Of a stretch of DNA of 33,976 nucleotides, positions 2,299-25,048 are shown one piece after another. Every line of letters starts with the position of its first letter. The first letter of the stretch is position 1. Both the position numbers and the translations under genes were made by a program. Under the pieces are notes generated by a model. The model did no database searches, was not told the DNA's origin, and saw only the letters and a list, made by a program, of their open reading frames with translations. This DNA comes from an uncultured Gammaproteobacteria bacterium (GTDB taxonomy: Bacteria > Patescibacteriota > Microgenomatia > JAMCZE01), in assembly GCA_964603445.1 (NCBI GenBank), contig CAZRUW010000099.1, positions 1 through 33,976 of the forward strand, written 5' to 3'.

Positions 2299-3219
2299 TT
2301 ATACTGTCAGAGCGACTCCTTTTTCCCGGAGTTTCTCCTCAACAATGGAAAGAGATTTGCCACCCAGATTTTTGATCTTTAACAGATCCTTTCTGGGTGT
2401 CCCGAGGAGCTGTCCCACGGTTTCTATGCCGCCGTTTTTCAGCGCGTTCTCCAGTCTGGTCGGCAGGTCCAATTCCTCGATGAGCATTTTGAGAACGTCA
2501 TCGGAAACTGTCGGGCTGACAGCCACATTGGCTTCCTGAGCCTCCGCTTTGGGTTCATAAATCTGGAGGAAATAGGAAACCAGGATTTTGGCCGCCTGCT
2601 TAAGGGCATCGGCCGGGGTGATAGTCCCGTCAGTCCAGATTTCCATGACCAAACGGTCCAGGTTGGTTTGCCGGCCTACCCGAGTGGCTTCCTGGCGATA
2701 GTTAACCCTAAGCACAGGTGTAAAGGCCGCGTCCAAAGGGATAAGACCGATCTGGCCGGTCCGGCGTTCTTCACTTGGAGAATAGCCGTAGCCGCTTTCC
2801 ACCGTCATTTCGGCGGAAATCTTTGACTTTTTGTCAGCCAAAGTTCCCAGATAAAGGTCGAGGTTGGCAATCTCGACACTGGACGGGACAGTGATATCTT
2901 TGGCAGTGACCTTACCTGGGCCGGTGGCTTCAAGGCGCAAAACAGCCTTGTTGCCATCAACCAGACGAACACGGAGTTTTTTCAAATTGAGGACAAACTC
3001 CACGATATCTTCCTTCAATCCCTCAAGGGACTGAAATTGATGCCGGACCCCTTCAATGGTGACACTGGTGACAGCCGCCCCGGGAAGGGAAGATAAAAGA
3101 ACGCGCCGAAGCGCGTTGCCCAAAGTATGGGCATAGCCGGTTTCCAGAGGTTCAATAATGAAACGGCCATAGGTCTCGGTTGTTTCCTCGGTCTTGACCT
3201 TAAAAATGGGATCTAACAT
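2299..3219 (-). CDS. rpoA: DNA-directed RNA polymerase alpha subunit
   Basis: 306 aa. The N-terminal domain has GYAHTLGNALRRVLLSSLPGAAV and the C-terminal domain has ELDLPTRLENALKNGGIETVGQL. Confidence 0.96.
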   Translation of the reverse strand: MLDPIFKVKTEETTETYGRFIIEPLETGYAHTLGNALRRVLLSSLPGAAVTSVTIEGVRHQFQSLEGLKEDIVEFVLNLKKLRVRLVDGNKAVLRLEATGPGKVTAKDITVPSSVEIANLDLYLGTLADKKSKISAEMTVESGYGYSPSEERRTGQIGLIPLDAAFTPVLRVNYRQEATRVGRQTNLDRLVMEIWTDGTITPADALKQAAKILVSYFLQIYEPKAEAQEANVAVSPTVSDDVLKMLIEELDLPTRLENALKNGGIETVGQLLGTPRKDLLKIKNLGGKSLSIVEEKLREKGVALTV

Positions 3220-3270
3220 ACATTCAAGAGTAATCTCGAATATAAGAACCTTGAGCTTTCGTTCAAGAAC

Positions 3271-3302
3271 CTTGCGGTCCTCGGCTTCGCCTGCGGGCCT
3301 AA
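3271..3302 (+). repeat. copy of the GNUCC/GGGNC hairpin element, in inverted orientation relative to the other copies
   Basis: The plus strand reads CTTGCGGTCCTCGGCTTCGCCTGCGGGCCTAA. This is the form the other copies show on the minus strand. Confidence 0.75.
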
Positions 3303-3326
3303 CAAATTTATTTGAAAATTGATTTG

Positions 3327-3376
3327 TTAGCCCTGAACACGATTAGTGCTCAGGCGCAAGCAACAAAGTTGCTTAT
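3327..3376 (-). repeat. divergent copy of the hairpin element
   Basis: The plus strand reads TTAGCCCTGAACACGATTAGTGCTCAGGCGCAAGCAACAAAGTTGCTTAT. It shares the TTAGCCC..GCGCAAGC..GCTTAT flanks with the 29772 copy and has its own apical stem. Confidence 0.55.
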
Positions 3377-3392
3377 ATTAGCGATTACTCTT

Positions 3393-3998: not shown

Positions 3999-4051
3999 CA
4001 ACAAAAAATTCTAAGAAACAAGAAACAAACTTGAAAATTAATTATTGATTA

Positions 4052-4141
4052 TATTCATCAGCCTCTAATTTACAAAGGTCTTGATGAATAATACCCATCG
4101 AAATGCGGGAAACGCCTGACAGTTTACCTTATGATGGGTAT
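4052..4141 (-). promoter_or_regulatory. two 9-bp stem-loops in the rpsK-rpsD spacer, a possible rpsD leader structure
   Basis: Stem 1 pairs 4052-4060 TATTCATCA with 4082-4090 TGATGAATA. Stem 2 pairs 4091-4099 ATACCCATC with 4133-4141 GATGGGTAT and encloses GCG-GGAAA-CGC. Confidence 0.5.
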
Positions 4142-4173
4142 ATTACTTTGTATCTTGTATCTTGGTTATTTAA

Positions 4174-5086: not shown

Positions 5087-5090
5087 TTTA

Positions 5091-5156
5091 GTTCACGGTT
5101 CACTGTTCACGGTTCACGGTAATTTTTATCTACTGTGAACCCGGTTTACTGTGAAC
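5091..5156. repeat. 7-nt-periodic array GTTCACN x4 followed by inverted GTGAAC copies
   Basis: GTTCAC starts at 5091, 5098, 5105 and 5112. GTGAAC occurs at 5135-5140 and 5151-5156. Confidence 0.85.
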
Positions 5157-8617: not shown

Positions 8618-9625
8618 TCAAATATTTTTCGGAGCATATAATGCTCCCCGCGTCTTCCCCACTTTGACTATAAGACTTTCATCCATTAGAGCTTTGAGGT
8701 CGTAACGAAGCATCCGCGGGTCAATTTGCAGAAAACGGCGGCGCAGAAAATCTAAGGAAACCAATCGGTGGTCTCTGATTGTGTCGAGCAGTTCGCGACG
8801 GCGAGGAGGAAGCAGATCCTCGTCGGTGAATCTCCTCTTAGCAATAATTTTATCTTTGGCCTTTTTTGAAGCACTGACCAGAAATTCGAGCATAAGTTCC
8901 AAAAAGGCGGTAGCGTCGGAAGCGGCAGAATCCTCAATCGCATTGTAATAGAGAGTGCGGTTTTTTTCGATTTCTTCCTCAACAACCGTCAATCCTTTCA
9001 TTGAATAACCATTTCTAGTGAGAATAGCCAGTTGTAACAGTCGTCCCACGCGCCCGCTGCCATCCACGAATGGGTGGATTTTCTCCATAGTCAGGTGGGA
9101 AAGGACAGCTCGGACTGGAATAAGTTTTTCCCTGGAACTGTTAGCATAGGCAAGAAGGGTCAGAACCAAACCGGGAACTTCGCTTGGCGGTGGCGCGTGA
9201 TAAATCAATGTACCAGCTTGGTCAAATATTCCTTCCTGACTCTGGCGAAAAATACCAGTATATTCACTCGACAGAATGTTTCTCATTGCCCTTTCGTGAA
9301 GTTTGAGAAGGTGCTTTACCGTTATTTCTCTTTTCTTCATATATGTTTGAAGTACGTCAGTTATACAATGGGTAAGATTGGCTACCTCAACTTTTTTCTT
9401 TTCCTTGCCAGTCAAATCACGGAAACTGCTTACTTGTGCCCTGGTCAGAGGATTGCCCTCCACTCGGGCAGAATATAGAGAACTTCCCAGAATTGATTCC
9501 CGGCGAAAATTTTCTTCAACTTTAACCGGAACGTTGACGGAATCAATAGTAGCTCGATTGGCTTCGAGTTCGAGTAATAGGCCGGTAATTTTCTTGGTGA
9601 GCCGGTATTTAGGAGGAATTATCAT
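8618..9625 (-). CDS. Fic/DOC-family protein with an N-terminal inhibitory motif and a C-terminal winged helix
   Basis: Fic motif HPFVDGSGRVGR, SxxxEG motif SARVEG, and a C-terminal LLDTIRDHRLVSLDFLRRRF...LRYDLKAL wHTH. I chose the ATG at 9623-9625 (MIIPPKYRL...), giving 335 aa. Confidence 0.85.
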   Translation of the reverse strand: MIIPPKYRLTKKITGLLLELEANRATIDSVNVPVKVEENFRRESILGSSLYSARVEGNPLTRAQVSSFRDLTGKEKKKVEVANLTHCITDVLQTYMKKREITVKHLLKLHERAMRNILSSEYTGIFRQSQEGIFDQAGTLIYHAPPPSEVPGLVLTLLAYANSSREKLIPVRAVLSHLTMEKIHPFVDGSGRVGRLLQLAILTRNGYSMKGLTVVEEEIEKNRTLYYNAIEDSAASDATAFLELMLEFLVSASKKAKDKIIAKRRFTDEDLLPPRRRELLDTIRDHRLVSLDFLRRRFLQIDPRMLRYDLKALMDESLIVKVGKTRGALYAPKNI

Positions 9626-9689
9626 GTCACCAAATATTTCCAGATTTCTCCAGATAATGCAATATAGATTTAGTGTTACAATCTGTCTC

Positions 9690-10139
9690 ATGGTGCATGT
9701 TGCCATCATGAAGAGGTCCTGGGGGATGATTCCCAAGATTTTGTCCGGAGAAAAGACCATTGAGAGCCGGTGGTATAAAACAAGACGAGCACCGTGGGAT
9801 AGGATAAAGGAGGGAGAAGAAATCTATTTCAAAAATTCTGGGGAAATGGTAACTATCAAAGCTGTGGTGTCCGGATTACTTCAGTTCTCGGATCTCACAC
9901 CAAGAAAAATCAGAGAGATTCTGGATAAATTCGGACATGACGACGGTATCAAGCAAGAAAAGATTCCGTATTTTGCCAAGCTCTTTGCTGACAAAAAATA
10001 TTGCCTTCTGGTTTTTCTCAAAAATCCTCGGAGAGTTAAACCTTTTGAGGTAGACAAAACCGGTTTTGGAGCAATGAGCGCGTGGATTACTGTTGACTCG
10101 ATTGTTGAAGTGATTTCCGAGATTCATTCATCACCTTAA
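9690..10139 (+). CDS. ASCH (PUA-like fold) domain protein
   Basis: Starts MVHVAIMKRSWGMIPKILSGEKTIESRWYK..., carrying the ASCH signature I..G.KT.E.R. It is ~149 aa. The only plus-strand gene; divergent from Fic across 64 nt. The track ORF's 5' extension runs antisense to Fic and is spurious. Confidence 0.75.
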   Translation: MVHVAIMKRSWGMIPKILSGEKTIESRWYKTRRAPWDRIKEGEEIYFKNSGEMVTIKAVVSGLLQFSDLTPRKIREILDKFGHDDGIKQEKIPYFAKLFADKKYCLLVFLKNPRRVKPFEVDKTGFGAMSAWITVDSIVEVISEIHSSP

Positions 10140-10314
10140 CTGATATTTTTACGACTTTTCTTATCTCCCAAAAACTTATGCGTCTTTTATCGAGGCCATA
10201 GGCATGAAATTCCGTTGTTTTAAGATCTCTCCATTCTTGAGGCCTTACACCTAACCTGAGAGCAGTAAGTGTATCAGAATGCCAAACCTGTTTTAGAACA
10301 TCCACGCCAATCAT
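10087..10314 (-). CDS. small hypothetical protein, possibly an excisionase/MerR-type HTH
   Basis: 75 aa from the ATG at 10312-10314. LRLGVRPQEWRDLKTTEFHAYGLDKRRISFWEIRK resembles the excisionase-family pattern LGVs..t.yRw...g.lpAy..G.r..f...ei. Its 3' end overlaps the ASCH 3' end antisense by 53 nt. Confidence 0.35.
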   Translation of the reverse strand: MIGVDVLKQVWHSDTLTALRLGVRPQEWRDLKTTEFHAYGLDKRRISFWEIRKVVKISVKVMNESRKSLQQSSQQ

Positions 10315-10321
10315 TGCTGTT

Positions 10322-10327
10322 ATTATA
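10322..10327 (-). promoter_or_regulatory. -10 box TATAAT placed 7 nt before the small-ORF ATG (leaderless configuration)
   Basis: The minus strand reads GTAGTATAATAACAGCAATG. No convincing -35 was seen. Confidence 0.35.
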
Positions 10328-10440
10328 CTACTTTTCTGCAAAGCATCTTATTGTGCTCCAAAATAGGGTCCGACCCTGCAAAGACACAGCCTTCCAGATA
10401 TTACGAGGTCTTTCGAGAAGTTTCGAGATATTACAAGATA

Positions 10441-10878: not shown

Positions 10879-10897
10879 AGGTTTTAAGTGACTTAAG

Positions 10898-11440
10898 TTA
10901 CATAGGGCTCTTAGGAATTTTCTTGCTTCTTTTTCCCGGTTCTTTTTCTTTCATCTCGCCACTTTGATCTTTTGTCTCGTTCTTTGTAGTTTTGTTTACC
11001 GGTCTTAGCCTTCTTAAGGCTTCCATTGTAGCATAGACGTTATTAGCTTGATTGTTTGTCCCTAACACTTTGCTGGAAATATCTTTAATCCCGGCGGCAT
11101 TAGCCACAGCCCTGACAGCACCACCGGCAATAACGCCGGATCCCGGCGGGGCGGGCATCAAAAGAACCTTGGCCGCTCCCACTTTGACCAGAACTTGATG
11201 CGGAATAGTTGTGCCCTTCATTGGAACAGTCAGCAAGTGTTTCTTGGCATAGGTAACCGCCTTTTGGATCGAGCTTTGGACTTCGGGGCCTTGACCCAAA
11301 CCAACGCCGACACGGCCCTTCTTATCTCCAACGACCACTAAAACGCTGAAGCCGATCTGGTTTCCCCCGGCCGTTTTTTTGGACACACGATTGACCTGGA
11401 CAACTTTTTCTTCGAATTCTTTTGGCTCCTGTGAATACAT
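10898..11440 (-). CDS. rpsE: 30S ribosomal protein S5
   Basis: Contains VVVGDKKGRVGVGLGQG...APPGSGVIAGG. It has a ~35-aa Lys/Glu-rich C-terminal tail. Confidence 0.95.
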   Translation of the reverse strand: MYSQEPKEFEEKVVQVNRVSKKTAGGNQIGFSVLVVVGDKKGRVGVGLGQGPEVQSSIQKAVTYAKKHLLTVPMKGTTIPHQVLVKVGAAKVLLMPAPPGSGVIAGGAVRAVANAAGIKDISSKVLGTNNQANNVYATMEALRRLRPVNKTTKNETKDQSGEMKEKEPGKRSKKIPKSPM

Positions 11441-11478
11441 ACGAATTTACACGAATTTGTTACTAATTAACACGAATG

Positions 11479-11784
11479 TTAGAACTTAAGACCGTTTTCT
11501 CTGGCGGCGTCGGCAAATTTTTTGACGTTGCCATGATATTTATAACCGGCCCGGTCAAAGACAACAGTGGATATTTTTGCTTTCAACGCCTTTTGGGCAA
11601 TTTCTCTTCCGGCAGCGACCGGATCAACCGTTTTATTGACAGAAACCAGGGTTTGATTCTTAGTGTCATCGATTATCTGACCATAAAGATAGCGGTTGGA
11701 ACGAAAAATGACCAGACGGGGCTTTTGTGATGTACCCCGGATGGTCCTTTTGGTTTTGGCTCGTCTTTCTTGTCTGGTATTCAT
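11479..11784 (-). CDS. rplR: 50S ribosomal protein L18
   Basis: Contains RLVIFRSNRYLYGQIIDD...GYKYHGNVKKFADAAR. Confidence 0.95.
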   Translation of the reverse strand: MNTRQERRAKTKRTIRGTSQKPRLVIFRSNRYLYGQIIDDTKNQTLVSVNKTVDPVAAGREIAQKALKAKISTVVFDRAGYKYHGNVKKFADAARENGLKF

Positions 11785-11820
11785 GTATTTTATTACTAGA
11801 TCTTTTGCTTTGCTCAGGAT

Positions 11821-11840
11821 GATCCGCCAGTTGGCGGATC
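11821..11840 (-). other. perfect 8-bp hairpin overlapping the rplF stop codon
   Basis: GATCCGCC-AGTT-GGCGGATC. No U-run follows it in mRNA sense. Confidence 0.6.
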
Positions 11841-12399
11841 ACTTTGCTCCTGCTGCACCTGCAGCTTTGGCCGCCTTGCCGGCCTTACGGCGAATTGCTT
11901 CCCCAATGTAGCGTATTCCCTTTCCTTTATATGGCTCCGGCGGCCGGATCCGCCGTACCTGGGCAGCTGCTTCCCCAACCAACTGCTTATCAATTCCTCG
12001 GATATTAATTTTCGTGTTATCAAAAACCTCAAAAGTTATTCCTTCCGGGGCAGGAAACTTGACAGGATGAGAAAAACCGACGTTAAGAACCAGAGTGTTT
12101 CCTTCAAGAGCGGCGCGATAGCCAACTCCCACTAATTCCAGTCCTTTATTCCAACCCTGAGTAGCGCCCAGAATCATGTTGGCTAAGAGAGTCCTGGTTA
12201 ACCCATGGAGGGCCTTGGCTTTTGGCGTTTCGGTTACTCTTTCAACAAGTACGTCCGACCCGGCGACACGAACCTTGACTTCAGGCCGAAATTCCTGACT
12301 CAAAGTACCCTTCGGCCCGGTAACCGAAACATGATTATTATCAATTTTAATAGTAATTTCTGAAGGAATTTTTACCGGTTTTGTGCCTATCCTGCTCAT
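11839..12399 (-). CDS. rplF: 50S ribosomal protein L6
   Basis: Starts MSRIGTKPVKIPSEITI at the ATG 12397-12399. The track ORF's 27-aa extension lies in a repeat spacer. The C-terminal tail is Ala/Lys-rich (KAGKAAKAAGAAGAK). Confidence 0.93.
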   Translation of the reverse strand: MSRIGTKPVKIPSEITIKIDNNHVSVTGPKGTLSQEFRPEVKVRVAGSDVLVERVTETPKAKALHGLTRTLLANMILGATQGWNKGLELVGVGYRAALEGNTLVLNVGFSHPVKFPAPEGITFEVFDNTKINIRGIDKQLVGEAAAQVRRIRPPEPYKGKGIRYIGEAIRRKAGKAAKAAGAAGAK

Positions 12400-12550
12400 A
12401 ATGTTCTTGATATTTTGAAGATGGAAATTCTCGATATTCTTGAACTTGATGTCTTGATTTCTTGAGATATTGCTATTCAAAAAGTCAAGAATTCAAAAAC
12501 TCCAGATCAAAATATCCATTTTTTTACTTTAGGATTTCCGTAACATTTAT

Positions 12551-12946
12551 CTACCATACTTCGCAAATAACTTCGCCGCCAAGGCCCCGGTGTCTGGCTT
12601 CATTATCAGTCAAAAGGCCGGCCGGTGTGGAAACTATGGCTATTCCCAAACCACCAAGGACTCGGGGAAGTTGGGATCTTTTGACATAAATTCGCAATCC
12701 TGGTCGGCTGACGATCTTGACGTCTGTCAGGGCACTTTTTTTGTGATCATACTTCAGTTTGAGAGTCAGTTCTTTTTTAGAGCCGTCGGTTGAAATTTCC
12801 TGACTGTCCAGGAAGCCTTGTTTTATAAGCAAATTGGCAACCGACTCCTTGGTTTTTGACCATGGAACCGGAACCTCGCTTTTATTGGCAAGATAACCAT
12901 TTTTAATTCTTATTAACATGTCCCCGACAGGATTATTTGTTACCAT
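12551..12946 (-). CDS. rpsH: 30S ribosomal protein S8
   Basis: Contains [12 protein letters not shown] and ends ...GGEVICEVW. Confidence 0.95.
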
Positions 12947-13128
12947 GATGCACGAACAACACCCGGAAGTTCACCCCGATGGGCCAATTCCCGGAAACAT
13001 AACCGGCAAAGACCAAACCGACGCATATAAGACCGGCTCCGACCACACAACTTGCACCGGTTTTTAAACCGGACAGTATATTTTTGTTTTCCGGTTGTAA
13101 ATTTGACGATGTCAGAAACCTTGGCCAT
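12940..13128 (-). CDS. rpsN: 30S ribosomal protein S14, type Z (zinc-binding)
   Basis: 62 aa with [23 protein letters not shown] (CxxC...CxxC). It overlaps the rpsH start by 7 nt. Confidence 0.94.
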
Positions 13129-13143
13129 AATTTGATATTGATC

Positions 13144-13680
13144 TTATTTTTTAAATGGCATCCCTAAAGCCTTAAGTAATGCTTCTGCTTTGGTATCTTC
13201 TTTTGCTGAAGTGACGATCGTCACTTCCAGACCGCGTATTTTATCAATTTTTCCGTAATCAATCTCGGGAAAGACGATTTGTTCGGCAAATCCAAGGCTA
13301 TAGTTCCCCTGACCATCAAAGCTGTCAGCGGGAACACCATGAAAGTCTCTCACCCTGGGAAGAACAATTGTTGTCAGTTTCTCCAGAAAGTCGTACATTC
13401 GGCTGCCGCGAAGAGTGACAGAAAGGCCAACCGGCTCGCCCTCGCGCAGCTTGAAGGCGGCAATAGACTTCCGGGCTTTTCTGACGACAGGTTTTTGGCC
13501 GGTGATAGTCATTAGCTGTTCAGAAACAACATCCAAAACTTTTTTGTCACTTAGGGCTTCCTTGAGACCAACACTGACCACAACCTTAGTAATCCCGGGC
13601 ACAGCCATAATATTTTGGAGTTTTAACCCCTCCTTAAGTTTTGGTCTGATTTCCTGATAATATTTTTGTTTAAGATTCAT
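13144..13680 (-). CDS. rplE: 50S ribosomal protein L5
   Basis: Contains SLGFAEQIVFPEIDY. I chose the ATG at 13678-13680 (MNLKQKYYQEIRPKL); the track starts 5 codons earlier at a TTG. Confidence 0.93.
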   Translation of the reverse strand: MNLKQKYYQEIRPKLKEGLKLQNIMAVPGITKVVVSVGLKEALSDKKVLDVVSEQLMTITGQKPVVRKARKSIAAFKLREGEPVGLSVTLRGSRMYDFLEKLTTIVLPRVRDFHGVPADSFDGQGNYSLGFAEQIVFPEIDYGKIDKIRGLEVTIVTSAKEDTKAEALLKALGMPFKK

Positions 13681-13719
13681 TCTCTTCAATATCAAAAATT
13701 AAATATCTTTGATATTTTG

Positions 13720-14025
13720 TTATATTTCCTGCCCGCATTTTCGACAGATCCGCACTTTTTCTTTTTCGGTCAGTTTATATCCGACCCTGGTTACCTGTTT
13801 ACACTTTGGACAGATTAAGGCAACATTGGCAACAGGCAAGGGCCGGACAAAATCAACAATGCCCCCCTTTTGCCCATCACCGCGGGGTTTGAGATGTCTT
13901 TTAAAGACATTCACTCCGGCGACAGTGACCCTGTTGTCTTTGGGCCAAATTTTCTCCACAACACCTTCCTTGCCCAGATCTTTGCCGGCCGTTATTTTGA
14001 CTTTATCACCTTTTTTTAATTTCAT
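13720..14025 (-). CDS. rplX: 50S ribosomal protein L24
   Basis: Starts MKLKKGDKVKITAGKDLGKEG (KOW motif) at the ATG 14023-14025. The C-terminal region has CPKC...CRKC. Confidence 0.93.
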   Translation of the reverse strand: MKLKKGDKVKITAGKDLGKEGVVEKIWPKDNRVTVAGVNVFKRHLKPRGDGQKGGIVDFVRPLPVANVALICPKCKQVTRVGYKLTEKEKVRICRKCGQEI

Positions 14026-14075
14026 AGAGTAATCGTTAATATACAAATCTTATTTCAATATACGAATATACAAAT

Positions 14076-14450
14076 TTATAAGACTTCGGACGCCATGGAA
14101 ATAATTTTATTAAACCCTCTGTCTTTTAATTCCCGCGCTACCGGACCAAAGACCCTGGTGCCGATGGGATCTTTATTTTCCAGACCGTTGATTACAATCC
14201 CGGCGTTGTCGTCAAACCGGATATAGCTGCCGTCAGTCCGGCGATGTTCTTTGTGAACCCGGGCAACAACAACAAAGACAGATTGGGAATCTTTAACCAT
14301 CCCGTTGGGATCCGCCCCGTCCACGACACAACGGACAATATCACCAAGGTAGGAAAACTTTCGCGTGGAACCCCCGTATAAATGGATCACCCGGAGCTTG
14401 TGGCCCCCGGTGTTATCGGCTGGTTTTAAGATAGTTCGGCGTTGAATCAT
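14076..14450 (-). CDS. rplN: 50S ribosomal protein L14
   Basis: Starts MIQRRTILKPADNTGG and contains ...VFGPVAREL. Confidence 0.95.
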   Translation of the reverse strand: MIQRRTILKPADNTGGHKLRVIHLYGGSTRKFSYLGDIVRCVVDGADPNGMVKDSQSVFVVVARVHKEHRRTDGSYIRFDDNAGIVINGLENKDPIGTRVFGPVARELKDRGFNKIISMASEVL

Positions 14451-14619
14451 AAACTTCCCCGATTCTACGATCGGGGTTTTCTAGAGCCCCAGTTTAATGA
14501 GGCTCACGAAAACTCCAACATTATCTGATTTTGTTTCCAGTATATTAGTCAAGGTTTTAGAAAGTATCGCCTTCATCTCCAAGCTCACGCTTGGAGTTTT
14601 CTGCGAGCCGATTTTAAAT
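14451..14619 (-). promoter_or_regulatory. structured leader element, copy A (rpsQ|rplN spacer), beginning at a -10-like TAAAAT
   Basis: It is alignable to 21376-21540. Conserved blocks are shared, and three helices have different sequences in the two copies but preserved pairing (see findings). The minus-strand TAAAAT is at 14611-14616. Confidence 0.65.
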
Positions 14620-14865
14620 TTAACTTTTGGCAGTGGCAGAGAGTACCTCGAGAACCCTAAAGTGTTTTGTTTTACTGTAGGGTCGGGACTTAACAAGCCG
14701 GACTTTGCTTCCGACCTGAATGTTGGCAATCTGGTTATGGGCAACTATCTTAGTCGTCCGCTTCAAGATTTTCTTGTACCTGGGATGGCGAAAAACATAG
14801 TTAATGGCGACGGTGACCGTCTGAGGTGTTTTATTTGAGATGACAGTTCCATCAAGAGTTTGCAT
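14620..14865 (-). CDS. rpsQ: 30S ribosomal protein S17
   Basis: Contains GTVISNKTPQTVTVAINYVFRHPRYKKILKRTTKIVAH. Confidence 0.94.
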   Translation of the reverse strand: MQTLDGTVISNKTPQTVTVAINYVFRHPRYKKILKRTTKIVAHNQIANIQVGSKVRLVKSRPYSKTKHFRVLEVLSATAKS

Positions 14866-15061
14866 AAAGTTCCTTTCCTTTTTTGATACTTAATATCCTT
14901 GCCAGATCGCGACAGAGGTTTTTGGCCAGGTTGGTGTTTTTGGCTTTCCTGGTCGCTATTTCCATTTTGGCTTTAACAATTTGGGCACGTAAATCCCCCG
15001 AGAGCTTCTCCAGTTCCGGAATGGTTTTATTATTAAGATCAGTAACGTCCTTTTTCTTCAT
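14852..15061 (-). CDS. rpmC: 50S ribosomal protein L29
   Basis: 69 aa and helical (ELEKLSGDLRAQIVKAKMEIATRK). It sits between rplP and rpsQ and overlaps rpsQ by 14 nt. Confidence 0.9.
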   Translation of the reverse strand: MKKKDVTDLNNKTIPELEKLSGDLRAQIVKAKMEIATRKAKNTNLAKNLCRDLARILSIKKGKELYANS

Positions 15062-15069
15062 ATTCAGGA

Positions 15070-15483
15070 TTACTCTTTCTGAATGAATTTAGTTCTCACG
15101 GATAGTTTGTGACCGGCGCGCCGCATGGCTTCCTGAGCCATTTCTTTGGTAATTCCTCCCATTTCAAAGAGAACCAGGCCGGGTCGGGCCACCGCTACAT
15201 AAACGGCTACTTCACCTTTTCCGCCGCCACCACGGTGATCAAGCGGCTGTTTAGTAACGGGCTTATTGGGAAACATCCGAACCCAGACCCGGCCGCCTTT
15301 AGCCGTAAAATGGGTCAGAGTCTTACGGGCAGATTCTATCTGATTGGCACTGACCCAGCCGCGGGTCTGAGCAACCAGACCAAAGTCCCCAAAAGCCAAA
15401 GTATTGCCGCGAGCGGCCATCCCCGGCATTTGTCCTTTAAAAGTTTTTCGATATTTAACTCGTCTTGGTGCTAAAAGCGGCAT
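15070..15483 (-). CDS. rplP: 50S ribosomal protein L16
   Basis: Starts MPLLAPRRVKYRKTFKG and contains ...RMGGGKG-like GGGGKGE. Confidence 0.95.
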   Translation of the reverse strand: MPLLAPRRVKYRKTFKGQMPGMAARGNTLAFGDFGLVAQTRGWVSANQIESARKTLTHFTAKGGRVWVRMFPNKPVTKQPLDHRGGGGKGEVAVYVAVARPGLVLFEMGGITKEMAQEAMRRAGHKLSVRTKFIQKE

Positions 15484-16907: not shown

Positions 16908-16918
16908 TTTTGTTTACA

Positions 16919-16958
16919 GTTCAGAGTTCACGGTTCACAGAAAGTTTTCAGTGTGAAC
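16919..16958. repeat. GTTCAS heptad array plus inverted GTGAAC, the same heptamer as at 5091-5156
   Basis: GTTCAG is at 16919, GTTCAC at 16926 and 16933, and GTGAAC at 16953-16958. GTTCACGGTTCAC is shared verbatim with 5091-5103. Confidence 0.8.
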
Positions 16959-19498: not shown

Positions 19499-19562
19499 AT
19501 CAGGCTTCCCTACATCCGACTAAGTCAGTTAGTGAGTTTAGGGCTTACTAACATGTAGGGGA

Positions 19563-19592
19563 ATTATACCCCACGGGGTTAGGGGATTGCAA
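19563..19592 (-). promoter_or_regulatory. candidate promoter TTGCAA-N18-TATAAT in the rpsJ-rplC spacer
   Basis: On the minus strand, TTGCAA is at 19587-19592 and TATAAT at 19563-19568. The hexamers and spacing are identical to the candidate upstream of the tuf leader. Confidence 0.55.
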
Positions 19593-19719
19593 GGGCGGAG
19601 AGAAAAAATTTGGTCAGCAGTCGGTTATTTAGGCTCTAACCTTTCCCTTTGGAGAAATAACTATTACTGTGCCAAAGAATGGGTCTACTAACGTTTGAGT
19701 GCCATCAGACTGAAGACTA

Positions 19720-20028: not shown

Positions 20029-20134
20029 TTGTCAAAAGGTCCTTTACCCTAAGGCCCAAGTCCAAAGGGCAAGTTCCACTTTCAAAGAGCAAAGTGTAAG
20101 TAACTTAAGTTACTTAAGAATCTTAAGGAACTTA

Positions 20135-21322
20135 TTAGGCAATAATTTTTGTCACGGCACCGGCCCCAACTGTTTTACCGCCTTCGCGGATGGCAAAACG
20201 CATGCCGTCCTCCATGGCGACAGGCTGGATTAATTTGACCTTCATTTTGGCGTTGTCGCCCGGCATGACCATCTCCACACCTTCCTGCAAGGTCACTTCA
20301 CCCGTCACATCCGTGGTGCGGATGTAGAACTGTGGCCGGTAACCGGAAAAGAACGGGGTGTGCCGCCCGCCCTCTTCTTTGGCCAGGATATAGACCTGGG
20401 CTTCAAACTCAGTGTGGGGGGTGATTGACCCGGGTTTGGCGATAACCTGGCCCCTTTCAACCTGCTCCTTTTCGATGCCCCGAAGCAAAAGGCCGACGTT
20501 ATCGCCAGCTTGACCTTCGTCAAGTTGTTTTCGGAACATTTCAACCCCGGTAACAACAGTTTTCTGGGTCGGTTTGAGGCCAACAATTTCGACCTCCTCA
20601 TTGACTTTAACGACACCGCGCTCAATTCGGCCCGTGACGACAGTTCCGCGTCCCTTGATGGAAAAGACGTCCTCAATGGGCATGAGGAAGGGTTTATCCA
20701 GCTCGCGAACCGGGGTAGGAATATAGCTGTCAACGGCATCCATGAGTTCCATAATGTGCTTTTCCTCTTCCGGGTCACCTTCAACAGCTTTAAGAGCTGA
20801 CCCTTTAATCACCGGGGCTTTTTCGCCGTCAAAACCATATTTAGTCAAGAGTTCCCGGACCTCAACCTCGACAAGATCAAGAAGTTCCTTATCGGTAACC
20901 ATGTCAACCTTGTTAAGGAAGACAACAATAGCCGGGACATTAACCTGTTTTGCCAACAGCAAATGCTCCCGGGTTTGAGCCATGGGACCATCAGCGGCGG
21001 AAACCACCAGGCTGGCACCGTCGACCTGAGCAGCGCCGGCGATCATGTTTTTGATGTAGTCGGCGTGGCCCGGCATGTCAATGTGGGCATAGTGTCTTTT
21101 GTCGGTTTCGTATTCGACGTGGGCGATGTTAATGGTGACGCCACGGGCTTTTTCTTCAGGAGCGCTGTCAATGTCCTCGTAATTCATCGCCTTGGCGAAG
21201 CCTTTTTTGGCGAGAACCTTAGTGATGGCTGAAGTGAGGGTAGTTTTACCGTGGTCGACGTGACCCATGGTCCCAATGTTAACGTGGGGTTTGTCACGGA
21301 TGAATTTTGCTTGATCAGCCAT
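20135..21322 (-). CDS. tuf: elongation factor Tu
   Basis: Has the GTPase motifs [18 protein letters not shown] and NKVD, and is 395 aa. Confidence 0.97.
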
Positions 21323-21375
21323 ATTTTTTTAAGACAAAAATATATAACTCCTTATTAAGGTTCAACCTTGATTGT

Positions 21376-21540
21376 AAACTTCTTTGGACTGAAAGTCCAA
21401 AGTCTTCCCCGGAAGTTTAATGAAGCTCACGGAAACTCTGGCATCACTAAACGGCACTTTTTGCCTTCGGCAGAAGTTTTAATCTGTTCGCATTTACCTC
21501 TTGTCTAAAGACAAGAGTTTCCTGCGAGTTGATTATAAAA
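21376..21540 (-). promoter_or_regulatory. structured leader element, copy B (fusA|tuf spacer)
   Basis: It is the paralogue of 14451-14619, with the same conserved blocks and covarying helices. A further 53 nt separate it from the tuf ATG. Confidence 0.65.
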
Positions 21541-21561
21541 TAGCCTCGTTAACCTTTGCAA
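21532..21561 (-). promoter_or_regulatory. candidate promoter TTGCAA-N18-TATAAT for tuf
   Basis: On the minus strand, TTGCAA is at 21556-21561 and TATAAT at 21532-21537. The -10 box coincides with the conserved end block of the leader element. Confidence 0.55.
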
Positions 21562-21569
21562 GACCCAAA

Positions 21570-23660
21570 TTACTTCTTGGTGATAATCTGCTCCTGAATA
21601 TTTTTGGGGACTTCTTCGTAGTGAGAAGGCTCCATATAGTAAGATGCTCGGCCCTGAGACATGGAGCGAAGTTTGGTGGAATAGCCTGAGAGTTCAGCCA
21701 AAGGAACCATGGCTAAAATGATGGTGGCATTGGCGCGATTACTGGTTCCCAGAATTTGAGCCCGTTTGGCGGAAAGGTCGCCAATGACATCACCCATAAA
21801 CTCGTCAGGGGTAGTCACTTCGACCTTCATAATTGGTTCCAAAAGGGTCAATTCTGCCTTTTTGCAGGCATCCTGAAGAGCTATGGAACCGGCAATTTGA
21901 AAGGCGACATCGGAAGAATCAACATCATGATAAGAGCCGTCATAGAAAGTGACTGTGAGATCGGTTAGGGGGAAGCCGGCCAAAATTCCGTTAGCGGCAC
22001 ATTCCTTGGTCCCCTTTTCAACTGAAGGAATAAATTCGGCCGGAACAGCTCCGCCTTTAATAGCGTTAATAAATTCCCAGCCTTCACCCCGGGGCTTGGG
22101 AGAAACTTTGACGAGAGCGTGGCCATATTGTCCCCGGCCGCCGGTTTGACGAATGTATTTGCCTTCTCCGGTGGCATCTTTTTTGATGGTTTCCTTATAG
22201 GCCACCTGGGGAGCACCAACATTGGCATCAACGTTCATTTCCCGTTTCATGCGGTCAACCAAAACCTCAAGGTGAAGCTCCCCCATGCCGGAGATGATGG
22301 TCTGGCCGGTTTCTTTGTTACTTTTGACTCGAAAGGTGGGGTCTTCTTCCATCAGGCGCTGAAGAGCATAGCCCAGTTTCTCCTGGTCGGCTTTGGTCTT
22401 GGGTTCAATGGCCAGAGAAATGACCGGTTCGGCAAAAGATATACCTTCCAGGACGAGAGGATTATTTTGGTCACACAAGGTATCGCCGGTGCGGGTGTCT
22501 TTAAGTCCCACGACGGCCACAATTTCTCCGGCGTAGGCTTCCGGAATCTCCTCCCGCTGGTTGGCGTGCATTAAAAGAAGCCGGCCGATGCGTTCTTGCT
22601 GGCCCCGGGTGGCGTTGTAGACATAGGAGCCGGATTTGATAGTGCCGGAATAGATGCGGACGTAATAGAGCTTTCCGACGTGAGGGTCGAGTTGCACTTT
22701 GAAAGCCAAGCCGGCCAAGGGAGCTTCTTTGTTTGTTCCCCGGGTTTCCTCCTGGTTTATTTTTGGATTAAGGCCGGTGACTGCCGGCCGATCCAGAGGT
22801 GAGGGTAAATAGTCAACAATGGCATCCAAAAGGGGTTGAACCCCTTTATTGCGCAAACTGGTGCCGGTGTAAACCGGAACGAGTTGGTAGGAGATAACAG
22901 CCTGGCGCAGAGCTTTTTGCAGTTCCGCAACTGCCGGTTGAGTACCATTAAGATATTTTTCCAAAAGCCCCTCGTCGGTTTCAGCGATTTGTTCCACCAG
23001 AAGATGGCGGTATTTTTCTACCTCGGTAGCGTCCAGTTCCGGGGGAATTTCTTTTTTAATTTCAAATTTAGCTCCCAGCTCATCACTGCCCCAGACGTAG
23101 GCTTCTTCTTTAATCAGGTCATAAACTCCCCGAAAATTGTTTTCCACGCCAATAGGAAGGACCATAACGGCCGGCTTGACTCCCAGACGCTCTTTGATTG
23201 CTTCCACGGTTTTATAGAAATTGGCGCCAAGTTTATCAATTTTATTGACAAAAATAAGCCTGGGAACTTTGTATTTATCAGCCTGACGCCAGACAGTCTC
23301 GGTTTGTGATTGGACTGTTTCTTCGGCATCGAGGATGGTTACCGCACCGTCCAAAACGCGCAATGAGCGTTCAACCTCGGCGGTAAAGTCCACGTGGCCG
23401 GGGGTATCGATAATATTAATCCGGAAATCACGCCAGAAAGTGGTAGTGGCAGCAGAGACAATGGTAATGCCCCGTTCTCTCTCCTGGGGCATCCAATCCA
23501 TCTGGGTGGTACCTTCATCAATGTCCCCGATTTTGTAAGTTTTGCCAGTATAAAAGAGAATCCGCTCGGTGGTGGTAGTTTTTCCCGCGTCAATATGGGC
23601 AATAATGCCGATGTTGCGGATTTTATCCAAAGGAAGTGACCGGGTTTTTGTGTCAGCCAT
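21570..23660 (-). CDS. fusA: elongation factor G
   Basis: Contains AHIDAGKTTTTERIL and DTPGHVDF. I chose the ATG at 23658-23660 (MADTKTRSLPLDKIRNIGI), giving 696 aa. Confidence 0.96.
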   Translation of the reverse strand: MADTKTRSLPLDKIRNIGIIAHIDAGKTTTTERILFYTGKTYKIGDIDEGTTQMDWMPQERERGITIVSAATTTFWRDFRINIIDTPGHVDFTAEVERSLRVLDGAVTILDAEETVQSQTETVWRQADKYKVPRLIFVNKIDKLGANFYKTVEAIKERLGVKPAVMVLPIGVENNFRGVYDLIKEEAYVWGSDELGAKFEIKKEIPPELDATEVEKYRHLLVEQIAETDEGLLEKYLNGTQPAVAELQKALRQAVISYQLVPVYTGTSLRNKGVQPLLDAIVDYLPSPLDRPAVTGLNPKINQEETRGTNKEAPLAGLAFKVQLDPHVGKLYYVRIYSGTIKSGSYVYNATRGQQERIGRLLLMHANQREEIPEAYAGEIVAVVGLKDTRTGDTLCDQNNPLVLEGISFAEPVISLAIEPKTKADQEKLGYALQRLMEEDPTFRVKSNKETGQTIISGMGELHLEVLVDRMKREMNVDANVGAPQVAYKETIKKDATGEGKYIRQTGGRGQYGHALVKVSPKPRGEGWEFINAIKGGAVPAEFIPSVEKGTKECAANGILAGFPLTDLTVTFYDGSYHDVDSSDVAFQIAGSIALQDACKKAELTLLEPIMKVEVTTPDEFMGDVIGDLSAKRAQILGTSNRANATIILAMVPLAELSGYSTKLRSMSQGRASYYMEPSHYEEVPKNIQEQIITKK

Positions 23661-23666
23661 TTTAAA

Positions 23667-23695
23667 ATGCCGTTTTCCGGCACAAGGCAATTATA
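23667..23695 (-). promoter_or_regulatory. weak candidate: a TATAAT -10 box plus a small hairpin before fusA
   Basis: On the minus strand, TATAAT is at 23690-23695, followed by UGCCG-GAAAA-CGGCA-UUUUAAA-AUG. No good -35 is present (TTCCTC at 17 nt). Confidence 0.3.
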
Positions 23696-23734: not shown

Positions 23735-24139
23735 CTAAGTTAAATCAGTGAATGGGTTATATGCTACTTCCCACAAATAGTCATCGGGGTCAGCAAAGTA
23801 ACCTCCATACCCGCCCCAAAAAACATCTTGGGGTTTTTTAACCATCTTGGCCCCAACAGAAACGGCTTTTTTAATGATTTCGTCCACTTCTTCTTTAGAG
23901 CTAACATTATGAGAAAGGGTAACTCCAGAAAAACCTGAGCCCTCTTTTGAAACGGTGGCGTCTTTAGCCAATCGATCTTTAGGATATAAGCAAAGCCAAG
24001 TTCCCTCCAATTCGAACATGGCGAAGCCGTCACTTTCTTTGTAATTATGAGTTTTAAACTTTAAACCATCTTTATAGAAGCGAAATGATTTATCGAAATT
24101 GGAAACGCCAAGGGTTATTAAACTAATTTTTGGCTTCAC
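23735..24139 (-). CDS. VOC (glyoxalase/bleomycin-resistance/dioxygenase) family protein
   Basis: 134 aa. It starts ISLITLGVSNFDKSFRFYKDGL and ends WGGYGGYFADPDDYLWEVAYNP. The start codon is GTG at 24137-24139, 7 nt after the upstream stop. Confidence 0.8.
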   Translation of the reverse strand: MKPKISLITLGVSNFDKSFRFYKDGLKFKTHNYKESDGFAMFELEGTWLCLYPKDRLAKDATVSKEGSGFSGVTLSHNVSSKEEVDEIIKKAVSVGAKMVKKPQDVFWGGYGGYFADPDDYLWEVAYNPFTDLT

Positions 24140-24146
24140 AACTTGA

Positions 24147-24992
24147 TTATATCTCTTTTAGAAACTTACTGAGGCAAACACCTTGCGATTTTTTGATTTC
24201 CCATTCGTCCAGATGTATTGTTTGGAAACCATGATCAGTCAAAAACTCCTCGCGCTTTTGGTCTTTTTCTTTTGCCCCCGGGATATTGTGCCAATAGGAG
24301 CCGTCGCACTCGATTAGAAGGTTTGTCCCTTTTATCTGAAAATCAGCGTGATATTTGCCAATGTGGACTTCTTGATCGAATGAAATATTTTTATTTGTTA
24401 AGTAGTCACGGACAATTTTCTCAATAGAGGTCTCACCCTTAAACCGGATATAACAGCGTCGCGAACAAAAAGTGCCCTTGCCTTTGTTTGTCTCCCAAGT
24501 TGGAAGTTGAAATTCTTTGTGGCAATTTTTACAAATTTTGGAAACATAGTCCCGTTCAAAATTATCTTTGCACACCTTGCTACAAAAAACTGCTTTAGTG
24601 GCAAAAGCGGGGGCTCTTTCCATTAATTTTTCGCACTGTTTACAAGTCAAGTGGACGTGTTTTTCTTGACGAGATTTTTGGAAGCATTCAAAGCTACAAA
24701 AGAAACCGAAACCTTGTTCAACTAAGTAGGCTTTTACTTCAAATTTCTTGCCGCATCTTTGACAAGTTTTAATCTGCTTTCTTTTTGTAGAAGAATGGTA
24801 ACAATCGCTAGAGCAATAGTTAATTTTGTGTTTTTGAAACGGCCACAAATTAATATTCTTGCCACAACCAAAACAAGTTGTCAAAACGCGACGTTTTTGA
24901 CTCTCCGATTTACATTTTCGCGAGCAAAATTTTCGGTGTCGTTGAATTTGCTCGCTAGTTAGTAAGTTAGAACAAAATTGACATTTTATCAT
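24147..24992 (-). CDS. five tandem Cys4 (TRASH/FCS-like) zinc-ribbon repeats fused to a DUF559/Vsr-like PD-(D/E)XK endonuclease domain
   Basis: There are 5 repeats of C-x2-C-x15-17-(F/Y)C-x3-C. The C-terminus is IVRDYL...YHADFQI...LLIECDGSYWHN...EKDQKREEFLTDHGFQTIHL. I chose the ATG at 24990-24992. Confidence 0.75.
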   Translation of the reverse strand: MIKCQFCSNLLTSEQIQRHRKFCSRKCKSESQKRRVLTTCFGCGKNINLWPFQKHKINYCSSDCYHSSTKRKQIKTCQRCGKKFEVKAYLVEQGFGFFCSFECFQKSRQEKHVHLTCKQCEKLMERAPAFATKAVFCSKVCKDNFERDYVSKICKNCHKEFQLPTWETNKGKGTFCSRRCYIRFKGETSIEKIVRDYLTNKNISFDQEVHIGKYHADFQIKGTNLLIECDGSYWHNIPGAKEKDQKREEFLTDHGFQTIHLDEWEIKKSQGVCLSKFLKEI

Positions 24993-25048
24993 CAAATACC
25001 AGCGTAAATCCGAAAAGAAGACGAATCAAGAAGTAATATACTACAGGT

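Follow-up and report, generated by a model that had tools for sequence, protein, structure and literature searches.

The DNA analysed here, a stretch of 33,976 nucleotides referred to as the window, contains a ribosomal-protein, rpoBC and str/S10/spc/alpha gene cluster of an uncultured bacterium. All genes are on the minus strand, the GC content is 47% and the L30 gene is absent from the cluster; the nearest relatives found in a scan of a genome collection carry the label Patescibacteria/Microgenomates. Between rpsQ (14620–14865, minus strand) and rplN (14076–14450, minus strand), and again in part of the spacer between fusA (21570–23690, minus strand) and tuf (20135–21322, minus strand), two copies of one sequence of around 160 nt are located. 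The copy in the rpsQ-rplN spacer is called copy A and the one in the fusA-tuf spacer copy B, while L-numbers denote the loci with which they were compared. Both are oriented like the ribosomal-protein genes and the GC skew is flat over the window (lagging-strand test of the top strand). Judged from sequence comparisons, and with a probability of about 0.65, copy A is a member of a new family of small, non-autonomous mobile DNA elements that lack an open reading frame (ORF).

The two spacers align over their full length with a mean column identity of 74%. The end-to-end likeness on which the original prediction was built, that of a conserved, two-state leader RNA upstream of rplN with a second copy before tuf, is thus real, and within the window the family has two members. 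The 18-mer CGTGAGCNTCATTAAACT is present at 14491–14508 and 21414–21431 and nowhere else in the window when up to 3 mismatches are allowed (chance expectation 0.07). Alignments and cmsearch place the exact limits at 14450–14614 for copy A (minus strand, 165 nt, AAATCGGCTCGC...GGGGAAGTTTA, 134 bits) and at 21375–21535 for copy B (minus strand, 161 nt, TAATCAACTCGC...CCAAAGAAGTTTA, 164.8 bits). The last base of copy A, 14450, is at the same time the A of the rplN ATG. At its left junction lies the flanking target TTTA (14615–14618, minus strand), which together with the first bases of the element reads TAAAAT (14616–14611); a promoter scan marks a promoter-like CTGCCA-17-TAAAAT there.

When the rplN protein was used to scan the genome collection, 23 loci were obtained, with rplN sequences 55–86% identical. 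The element is absent from the rpsQ-rplN junction in 23 of 23, where the genes overlap or are 1–36 nt apart (98 nt in L024); L002 and L005 read TAATTTATG between them. If nucleotides 14450–14614 are taken out of the window, TAA-ATTT-ATG is left, as in the relatives, with the sequence TAAATTTATG. Insertion of copy A split TTTA|TG, and the terminal TTTA of the element itself remakes the rplN ATG. The original prediction had named the homologous spacers of relatives as a place where it could fail; these junctions being empty, the rplN leader it proposed is not a conserved one. The covariance-model search that it had also suggested, run together with a profile hidden Markov model (HMM), revealed no further copy in approximately 430 kb of the relatives' loci.

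The tuf site tells the same story. In the relatives, the tuf promoter is conserved (CTTGCAA/T-N17-18-TATAAT/TATACT/TAAAAT) and the 5' untranslated region (UTR) is around 55 nt long with a CCTTGACAAAAGG-type hairpin, both without the element. In the window, the native tuf promoter TTGCAA-N18-TATAAT (21532–21561, minus strand, 10/12 matches) has its -35 box at 21561–21556, 18 nt ahead of the TATAAT at 21537–21532. Only the first two bases of this -10 box are host DNA, and the remaining TAAT (21535–21532) belongs to the element. Removal of 21375–21535 leaves TTGCAA-N18-TACAAT, in which TACAAT aligns under the -10 box of the relatives, followed by the native tuf 5' UTR (CAATCAAGGTTGAACCTT...ATATG, 21323–21374, minus strand) that is collinear with theirs; the empty promoter allele expected from this removal is TTTACAAT. 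In copy B, the terminal TTTA of the element thus gives the tuf -10 box back its TA, just as it gives the rplN start codon back its A in copy A. Of the suggestion that the element carries a complete promoter, the -10 box at its 5' edge stands, lying in copy B 18 nt past the tuf -35 box, but the -35 box and the first -10 bases are native host DNA. Since the relatives are without the element and its removal restores both sites, both window copies are, on this sequence evidence, clean, lineage-specific insertions. Exact look-up of the rplN and rpsQ proteins gave a single contig, a short one from Logan that carries an identical element, and the tuf protein is not on record; a search for rpsQ homologues, the closest being 51% identical, yielded no orthologous, slightly diverged copies.

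Some of the relatives have additions of their own in the fusA-tuf spacer. In L012 (around 3010–3215), the hairpin AGCCGATTGCGATCGGCT directly follows the TATAAT and is unrelated to the element, and the spacers of L004 and L009, of 606 and 475 nt, contain ORF-sized inserts upstream of the promoter that are likewise unrelated to it. Elsewhere in the window, the 219-nt rpsJ-rplC spacer (19501–19719) contains CCCTTGCAATCCCCTAACCCCGTGGGGTATAAT, of the same CTTGCAA-N17-TATAAT type as found before tuf, and would therefore hold an internal promoter inside the S10 operon.

Metagenomes were scanned with a single exact pattern of 20 specified bases, giving 13 loci, to which an HMM made from copies A and B alone was then applied. 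It recognises four of these over their full length, two of which are identical, leaving three new distinct copies with E-values of 8e-31, 4e-27 and 8e-27; the rest are chance matches. This recovery of three more full-length copies means that the similarity defines a real family. The L031 copy is located 12 nt before mreC. The L029 copy, identical to that of L032, lies directly before a gene for a DUF5667 secreted protein, which is followed by nrdR, and the same copy is present in ten more contigs (L042–L051); look-up of the DUF5667 neighbour (P0001) gave ten places, each bearing this identical element and none with another copy within 20 kb. The L036 copy has the stop codon of a 465-residue ORF on one side and a tRNA-Thr gene on the other, and is antisense to both. 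In this last locus (L036 1–402), the ORF has no Pfam match and occupies 400–1797 on the minus strand, the tRNA-Thr gene occupies 145–217 on the minus strand, and a second tRNA-like sequence at about 62–135 is not called by ARAGORN. The 20-kb L042 locus is rich in toxin-antitoxin pairs (PIN, BrnT/BrnA, Phd, MazE, Fic) and contains, near the L029-type copy, a ribonucleotide reductase gene with a LAGLIDADG intein (11386–15147).

All five copies have the same boundaries: a flank ending in NTTA, then (T/A)AATCGGCTCGCAG ... GAAGTTTA, then flank again, with the similarity stopping at those edges. The element starts with (T/A)AATC directly 3' of the flanking TTA in each of them, the left flanks being TTTA three times, CTTA and ATTA. 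At the left junction, four copies have TATAAT and copy A has TAAAAT. The L031 junction follows a TTGAAA box by 16 nt, and its rebuilt empty site would read TATACT; the L036 junction is palindromic, so that the strand encoding the tRNA also carries TATAAT, 16 nt ahead of that gene. The copies measure 158–165 bp. In global alignments, copy B is 73–76% identical to the copies of other organisms, as against 60% to copy A. Four of the five are co-oriented with the downstream gene and end 0–22 nt ahead of its start codon. No ORF is conserved across the copies, and terminal inverted repeats are absent: TAATCGGC... at one end is no inverted copy of ...GAAGTTTA at the other, and such inverted repeats as there are lie internally. 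Three patterns searched in viral contigs gave four chance matches or nothing, phage and plasmid collections gave no blastn match, and a pseudo-protein search, in which one frame of the element, translated, served as the query for miscalled ORFs lying over other copies, gave no candidates. The family appears to be rare, found so far in a few Microgenomates-type bacteria of the candidate phyla radiation (CPR).

The dispersed copies at non-homologous loci, the empty sites in relatives and the absence of an ORF place the element among the small non-autonomous mobile elements in general. Several more specific classes were considered and rejected. It is not a classical miniature inverted-repeat transposable element (MITE), nor a TA-duplicating MITE of the IS630/Tc1 type, as terminal inverted repeats are missing. 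The differences between copies are not restricted to adenines, as they would be between template and variable repeat of a diversity-generating retroelement. Frames are not conserved, as they would be in a conserved small ORF. Hammerhead and hairpin ribozyme motifs occur only as short chance strings, with no Rfam match, and the motifs of integron attC sites, dif/Xer sites and group I or II intron ends do not fit.

Folding by RNAalifold and of single sequences gives a structure of two domains. Domain I is a long 5' hairpin, made up of the stem UAAUCGG/CUGAUUA, then CUCGCA/UGCGAA, then hairpin H3. Domain II, which holds a small hairpin (CUGCCGAAGGCA) and hairpin H1, is closed by a stem of AAAACUUC and the 3'-terminal GAAGUUUA. 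In the predicted fold, a middle block, CUGAUUA-AAACUUC, is complementary to both termini and places them side by side. A long-range helix competes with domain I: GGCUCGC/AG/AAAACUCY pairs with RGAGUUUU/C/GUGAGCC in 15 pairs, with 98.7% of the cells paired. Its three compensated pairs are a G-C to A-U change, an A-U to G-C change and a U-A/C-G pair split 3:2 among the copies. The outer stems of domain I have less support, being 86.7% paired with one compensated pair (A-U to U-A in L029). The two hairpins are nearly rewritten between copies and yet remain paired, with compensated changes in 4 of 10 pairs in H3 and 6 of 8 in H1. At the foot of H3, a base that is either C or U covaries with each of its two possible partners. 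These covariation counts come from five sequences without control for kinship and are suggestive, not proof. The two window copies have folding z-scores of -5.1 and -5.2, with none of 200 shuffles equally stable, and the unpaired blocks are nearly invariant across organisms.

In copy B, the parts of this structure are arranged as follows. Reading the element from its 5' end (all on the minus strand), the 5' strand of the long-range helix (AACTCGC AG GAAACTCT, 21514–21530), where one pair is A-U instead of G-C and another G-C instead of A-U, leads into H3 (CTCTTGTC TTTA GACAAGAG, 21498–21517). This is followed by the middle block GCGAACAGATTAAAACTTCTGCC (21469–21491), with the small hairpin alongside at 21462–21472; CAGATTA of this block partly pairs with the 5' end of the element (TAATC/GATTA), and AAACTTC with its 3' end. 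The 3' strand of the long-range helix (AGAGTTTCCGTGAGCTT, 21423–21439) and H1 (CTTTGGACT TTC AGTCCAAAG, 21382–21402) complete the structure; the hairpins were placed by folding and covariation, the 3' strand by the covariation count. Copy A has lost the middle block and both end-closing stems, and keeps the long-range helix, H3, H1 and the AAACU/AGUUU pairing. Its long-range 5' strand (GGCTCGC AG AAAACTCC, 14593–14609, minus strand) overlaps the 5' arm of H3 (CTCCAAGC GTGA GCTTGGAG, 14577–14596, minus strand, again from folding and covariation), which has AGAAAA before it. The 3' strand (GGAGTTTTCGTGAGCC, 14501–14516, minus strand, from the covariation count) borders on the junction TCATTAAACT (14491–14500, minus strand), of which TCATTAAAC is invariant in all five copies and AAACT is able to pair with the 3'-terminal AGTTT. 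H1 (CCCCGAT CGTAGA ATCGGGG, 14457–14476, minus strand) has AGAAAA before it and AAGTTTA after it. The three helices of the original prediction, H1 at 14457–63/14470–76, H3 at 14577–84/14589–96 and the long-range helix at 14508–16/14593–14601, are all where it had put them, and their stems are indeed replaced by compensating changes (three pairs in the long-range helix). The long-range helix is real and compensated, only longer than the nine pairs first seen. That it competes with H3 for the same nucleotides, with both partners covarying, also holds.

Such alternative helices in front of genes for a ribosomal protein and EF-Tu resemble ribosomal-protein leaders and riboswitches. The copies could be leader RNAs that regulate in cis by changing between two states, in the manner of a riboswitch or by binding a protein, and that may have begun as mobile DNA and been exapted later. 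In that case the 5' hairpin state (the UCGC/GCGA stem plus H3) would alternate with the long-range helix in response to a signal and set the expression of what lies downstream (the rplN operon, tuf, mreC). The 15 nearly always paired positions of the long-range helix with their three compensations, the compensated local stem in L029 and the position covarying with both partners, the z-scores of about -5 with nearly invariant unpaired blocks, the co-orientation of four of the five copies just before a start codon, and a junction -10 box giving a fixed transcript start are all as such a leader would have them, and a switch between the local and long-range states is possible. We nevertheless consider this reading unlikely. 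Unlike a leader, the element is not kept at the orthologous site in any of the relatives, nor tied to one class of genes: rplN, tuf, mreC and the DUF5667 gene are unrelated, and L036 has its neighbours antisense and no gene downstream. The local state is the energy minimum in all five copies, and forcing the long-range helix costs 2.2–10.5 kcal/mol. A transcript starting about 7 nt past the junction -10 box would begin within CUCGCAG and so miss some of the 5' strand in each of the two competing outer stems. The covariation, moreover, comes from five sequences and represents few independent events.

No output for a switch is visible either. Terminator scans over 1 kb around each of the two window copies gave no hairpin-plus-U-run in the sense direction, and so no expression platform can be seen. 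The original prediction had H1 burying a Shine-Dalgarno (SD)-like stretch. Almost no SD sequences are present in the 30 nt upstream of 36 start codons of the window, the only AAGGAG, before tuf, being 27 nt from the ATG; evidently, translation initiation in this organism is SD-independent, to judge from these start regions, and the burial by H1 carries no weight because there are essentially no SDs to sequester. Of the proposed two-state regulatory RNA, then, the competing, covarying helices are there, but the two scans gave no sense terminator and the local state is favoured throughout. The remark that the element is no known ribosomal-protein leader or riboswitch is borne out: an Rfam search of the whole window at the gathering threshold gave no match to the element, and four regions of it searched at E-values up to 10 gave chance-level matches only (miRNA, snoRNA, a 12-bit group II fragment and one L10_leader with E = 1.4). 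A ribosomal-protein autoregulatory leader was rejected on its absence at the orthologous position in the 23 relatives together with the lack of a curated leader match, and a riboswitch on the unrelated downstream genes, the absence of sense terminators in the two window scans and the near-absence of SDs, in spite of its alternative helices.

The terminator matches inside the window copies are all on the antisense strand, both hairpins having AGAAAA on their 5' side. Might the functional strand, then, be the antisense one, with H1 and H3 read in reverse, each followed by TTTTCT, as a pair of intrinsic terminators that stop antisense or convergent transcription and act as an insulator? Both copy A hairpins are terminator-like on the plus strand, H1 scoring as such on the strand opposite to the element. 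Reading from the sequence, T-runs follow the reverse complement of H3 in all copies and that of H1 in copy A, L029 and L031. On the antisense strand, three copies have a cUUCGg loop in their small middle hairpin, and in that orientation the L036 element comes right after the stop codon of the convergent 465-residue ORF. The gene-sense strand, however, folds more stably in five of five copies. The proposed pairs contain 26 G-U against 6 A-C, which favours the sense strand, on which, it should be said, the structures had been predicted; several of the antisense hairpins (in L036 and L031) would contain C-A mismatches. In L036 the tRNA-Thr gene would be cut off from upstream transcription, and the invariant unpaired blocks and the long-range helix are left unexplained. 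An insulator as the function of the element is therefore, in our judgement, extremely improbable.

If the element is mobile DNA, its life cycle may be pictured as follows. It would insert after TTA in T-rich, often -10-like sequence, and its ends, TAAT... and ...TTTA, would restore what the insertion interrupted, be it a promoter box or a start codon. Such insertion would be scarless for the host, explaining its tolerance inside essential, highly expressed operons. In the gene-sense orientation the element would be transcribed with the host mRNA, by read-through in copy A and from a junction promoter in copy B, in L031 and probably in L029; the promoter scan marks TTGCAA-18-TATAAT in copy B, and TTGAAA-16-TATAAT can be read from the sequence in L031. 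It would then form a structured segment, either intercistronic or within the 5' UTR, that lets sense transcription pass; the two hairpins with AGAAAA on their 5' side would act as hairpin-plus-U-run terminators on antisense transcription only.

Gene-less intergenic repeats of similar size, around 100–170 bp, are known as Correia elements (CREE/NEMIS, in Neisseria), ERIC and RUP; they are co-transcribed and fold in the mRNA, and their ends can create -10 or -35 boxes at insertion junctions. These have terminal inverted repeats of 20–30 bp and a TA duplication, whereas our element has no terminal inverted repeats and a very low copy number. The circle junctions of IS911, IS30 and IS110/IS621 also resemble it, in that a hexamer is built across an element end: its right end joined to its left end would read GTTTA|TAAT, and thus contain TATAAT. 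The junction promoters of those elements drive an adjacent transposase or bridge RNA, while here no gene follows and the -35 box comes from the host.

A closer likeness is that to palindrome-associated transposable elements (PATEs), the gene-less derivatives of IS200/IS605. IS200/IS605 elements insert 3' of a tetranucleotide that is kept in the left flank, and carry subterminal hairpins on the top strand with a guide sequence 5' of the base of each (PMC5934647); PATEs are without genes, and target-adjacent motifs (TAMs) such as TTTAT occur among them (PMC10055086). Our element is similarly short, has neither ORF nor terminal inverted repeats, and lies directly 3' of a short T-rich motif kept in the left flank (as defined in PMC5934647 and PMC10055086). 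It has subterminal hairpins on the same strand, the foot of H3 being 18 nt from the left end and that of H1 7 nt from the right end, and an A-rich stretch (AAAA, GAAA or AAGA) 5' of each hairpin foot faces TTTA; the complementarity is partial and the motifs are nearly invariant. Copies scattered over several loci and relatives with empty sites are further points in common. There are also differences: a Y1 transposase or autonomous partner was not found in the sequences examined, the two hairpins share only their foot (CUC...GAG) and not their whole sequence, the strongly conserved middle and the 15-bp long-range helix are not needed for transposition, and the right-end motif equals the target motif, making a 3–4-bp duplication possible. 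By analogy, we tentatively propose, with the odds rather against it, that the element moves in single-stranded form through an HUH (Y1) transposase of the IS200/IS605 type acting in trans, as PATEs do. If this is correct, the covarying structure would reflect selection on transposability, on harmlessness or on both, and not regulation of rplN.

PATEs are often a source of omega-RNAs, which work together with TnpB in trans (PMC10055086), and the element might accordingly be a mobile non-coding RNA gene, its product a trans-acting structured RNA such as a guide of the TnpB/IscB omega-RNA type on a PATE. The 3' end would run into the flank as the guide, and expression would come from the -10 box rebuilt at each insertion. 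The known PATE-borne omega-RNAs with TAMs such as TTTAT (PMC10055086), a 5' junction that always makes a TATAAT-like -10 box, and a conserved multi-helix core with invariant junctions and a 3' end abutting the flank agree with this. Rfam contains no match, however, even at E-values up to 10. No tnpB, iscB or tnpA was found in the window or among the Pfam-matched genes of the 20-kb L042 locus, the -35 box, which lies outside the element, is a poor one in L029, L036 and copy A, and neither a terminator nor a defined 3' end was found. We regard an RNA gene of this kind as distinctly unlikely.

Several observations weigh against the reading as a small mobile DNA element. No transposase is present among the ORFs tested in the window other than those for ribosomal proteins, nor among the Pfam-matched genes of L042, many genes of which have no match. 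No autonomous element with these ends was found, the one metagenome scan giving complete small copies only, and just five distinct copies are known. The TTA before each copy (TTTA in three of five) and the TTTA ending each fit a 3–4-bp duplication and an element-encoded end alike, and under IS608 pairing rules the A-rich guides match TTTA only partly. Copy A is without the middle block and has still kept the long-range helix, H3 and H1, and two mutually exclusive helices both have compensated changes. In copies that are only 60–82% identical, the stems are all perfect or nearly so, which is not expected of a purely selfish insert in decay and suggests that structure is still under selection, possibly at the RNA level. 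The element might instead be a mobile module of structured RNA: the rebuilt -10 box would get it transcribed from host promoters, and its two folds would either act in cis as a portable switch or stabiliser on essential operons such as tuf and spc, or serve in trans as a guide resembling an omega-RNA. We think it improbable, and retain the small mobile DNA element as the best explanation.

Other spacers of the cluster are also expanded with respect to near relatives: rpoA-rplQ measures 121 nt in the window versus 2–11 nt, rpsD-rpoA 173 nt versus 11–14 nt, and rpsK-rpsD 169 nt versus -4 to -1 nt. With these lineage-specific expansions, our element would be part of a wider invasion, by small elements, of the intergenic junctions of this organism. 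The rpoA-rplQ (2178–2298) and rpsD-rpoA (3220–3392) spacers have terminal inverted repeats of about 17 nt, starting with AGAGTAATC(T/G)CTAATAT and ending in ATATTCGAGATTACTC, and partial matches to them are located at 14012–14043 and 15060–15088; by sequence, these spacers look like a second MITE family, with terminal inverted repeats, in the same cluster. The rpsK-rpsD spacer (4005–4173), whose ends AAGATACAAGATACAAAG and CAAGTTTGTTTCTTGTTTCTT are roughly inverted repeats, probably contains a third kind of insert.

Further features of the cluster are tandem heptads (GTGAACC/GTGAACA) directly upstream of rpsM and rpsS, at 5087–5130 and 16908–16950, and a palindromic TAAGT(G/A)ACTTAAGTTAC in the rpsE-rplO (10884–10924) and tuf-rpsJ (20097–20136) spacers. 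Between rplO and secY (8618–10440), a 380-residue ORF with a Fic/DOC domain is found together with 680 nt of mostly non-coding DNA; the corresponding gap in relatives ranges from 6 nt to 3.9 kb, which makes this a variable insertion hot spot inside the spc operon. In the str operon, the rpsG-fusA interval (23735–24995) has received an insertion that encodes a 282-residue DUF559/REase-like endonuclease with an N-terminal zinc-ribbon-like stretch and a 134-residue glyoxalase-family protein.

These results remove a false lead: in our analysis, the rplN spacer is neither an undiscovered ribosomal-protein leader nor a riboswitch. What takes its place would be a previously undescribed family of small mobile elements in CPR bacteria, a group in which knowledge of mobile DNA is scant. 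Insertion into a -10 box and into a start codon of essential genes, both repaired by the ends of the element, would illustrate how a parasite may colonise conserved operons harmlessly in a tiny genome, and with several lineage-specific inserts in one cluster this genome is well suited to studying invasion by small elements. If the alternative folds act at the RNA level, the element would be a transposable regulatory or guide RNA, and as a mobile RNA module it would constitute a transposable riboregulator in reduced CPR genomes.

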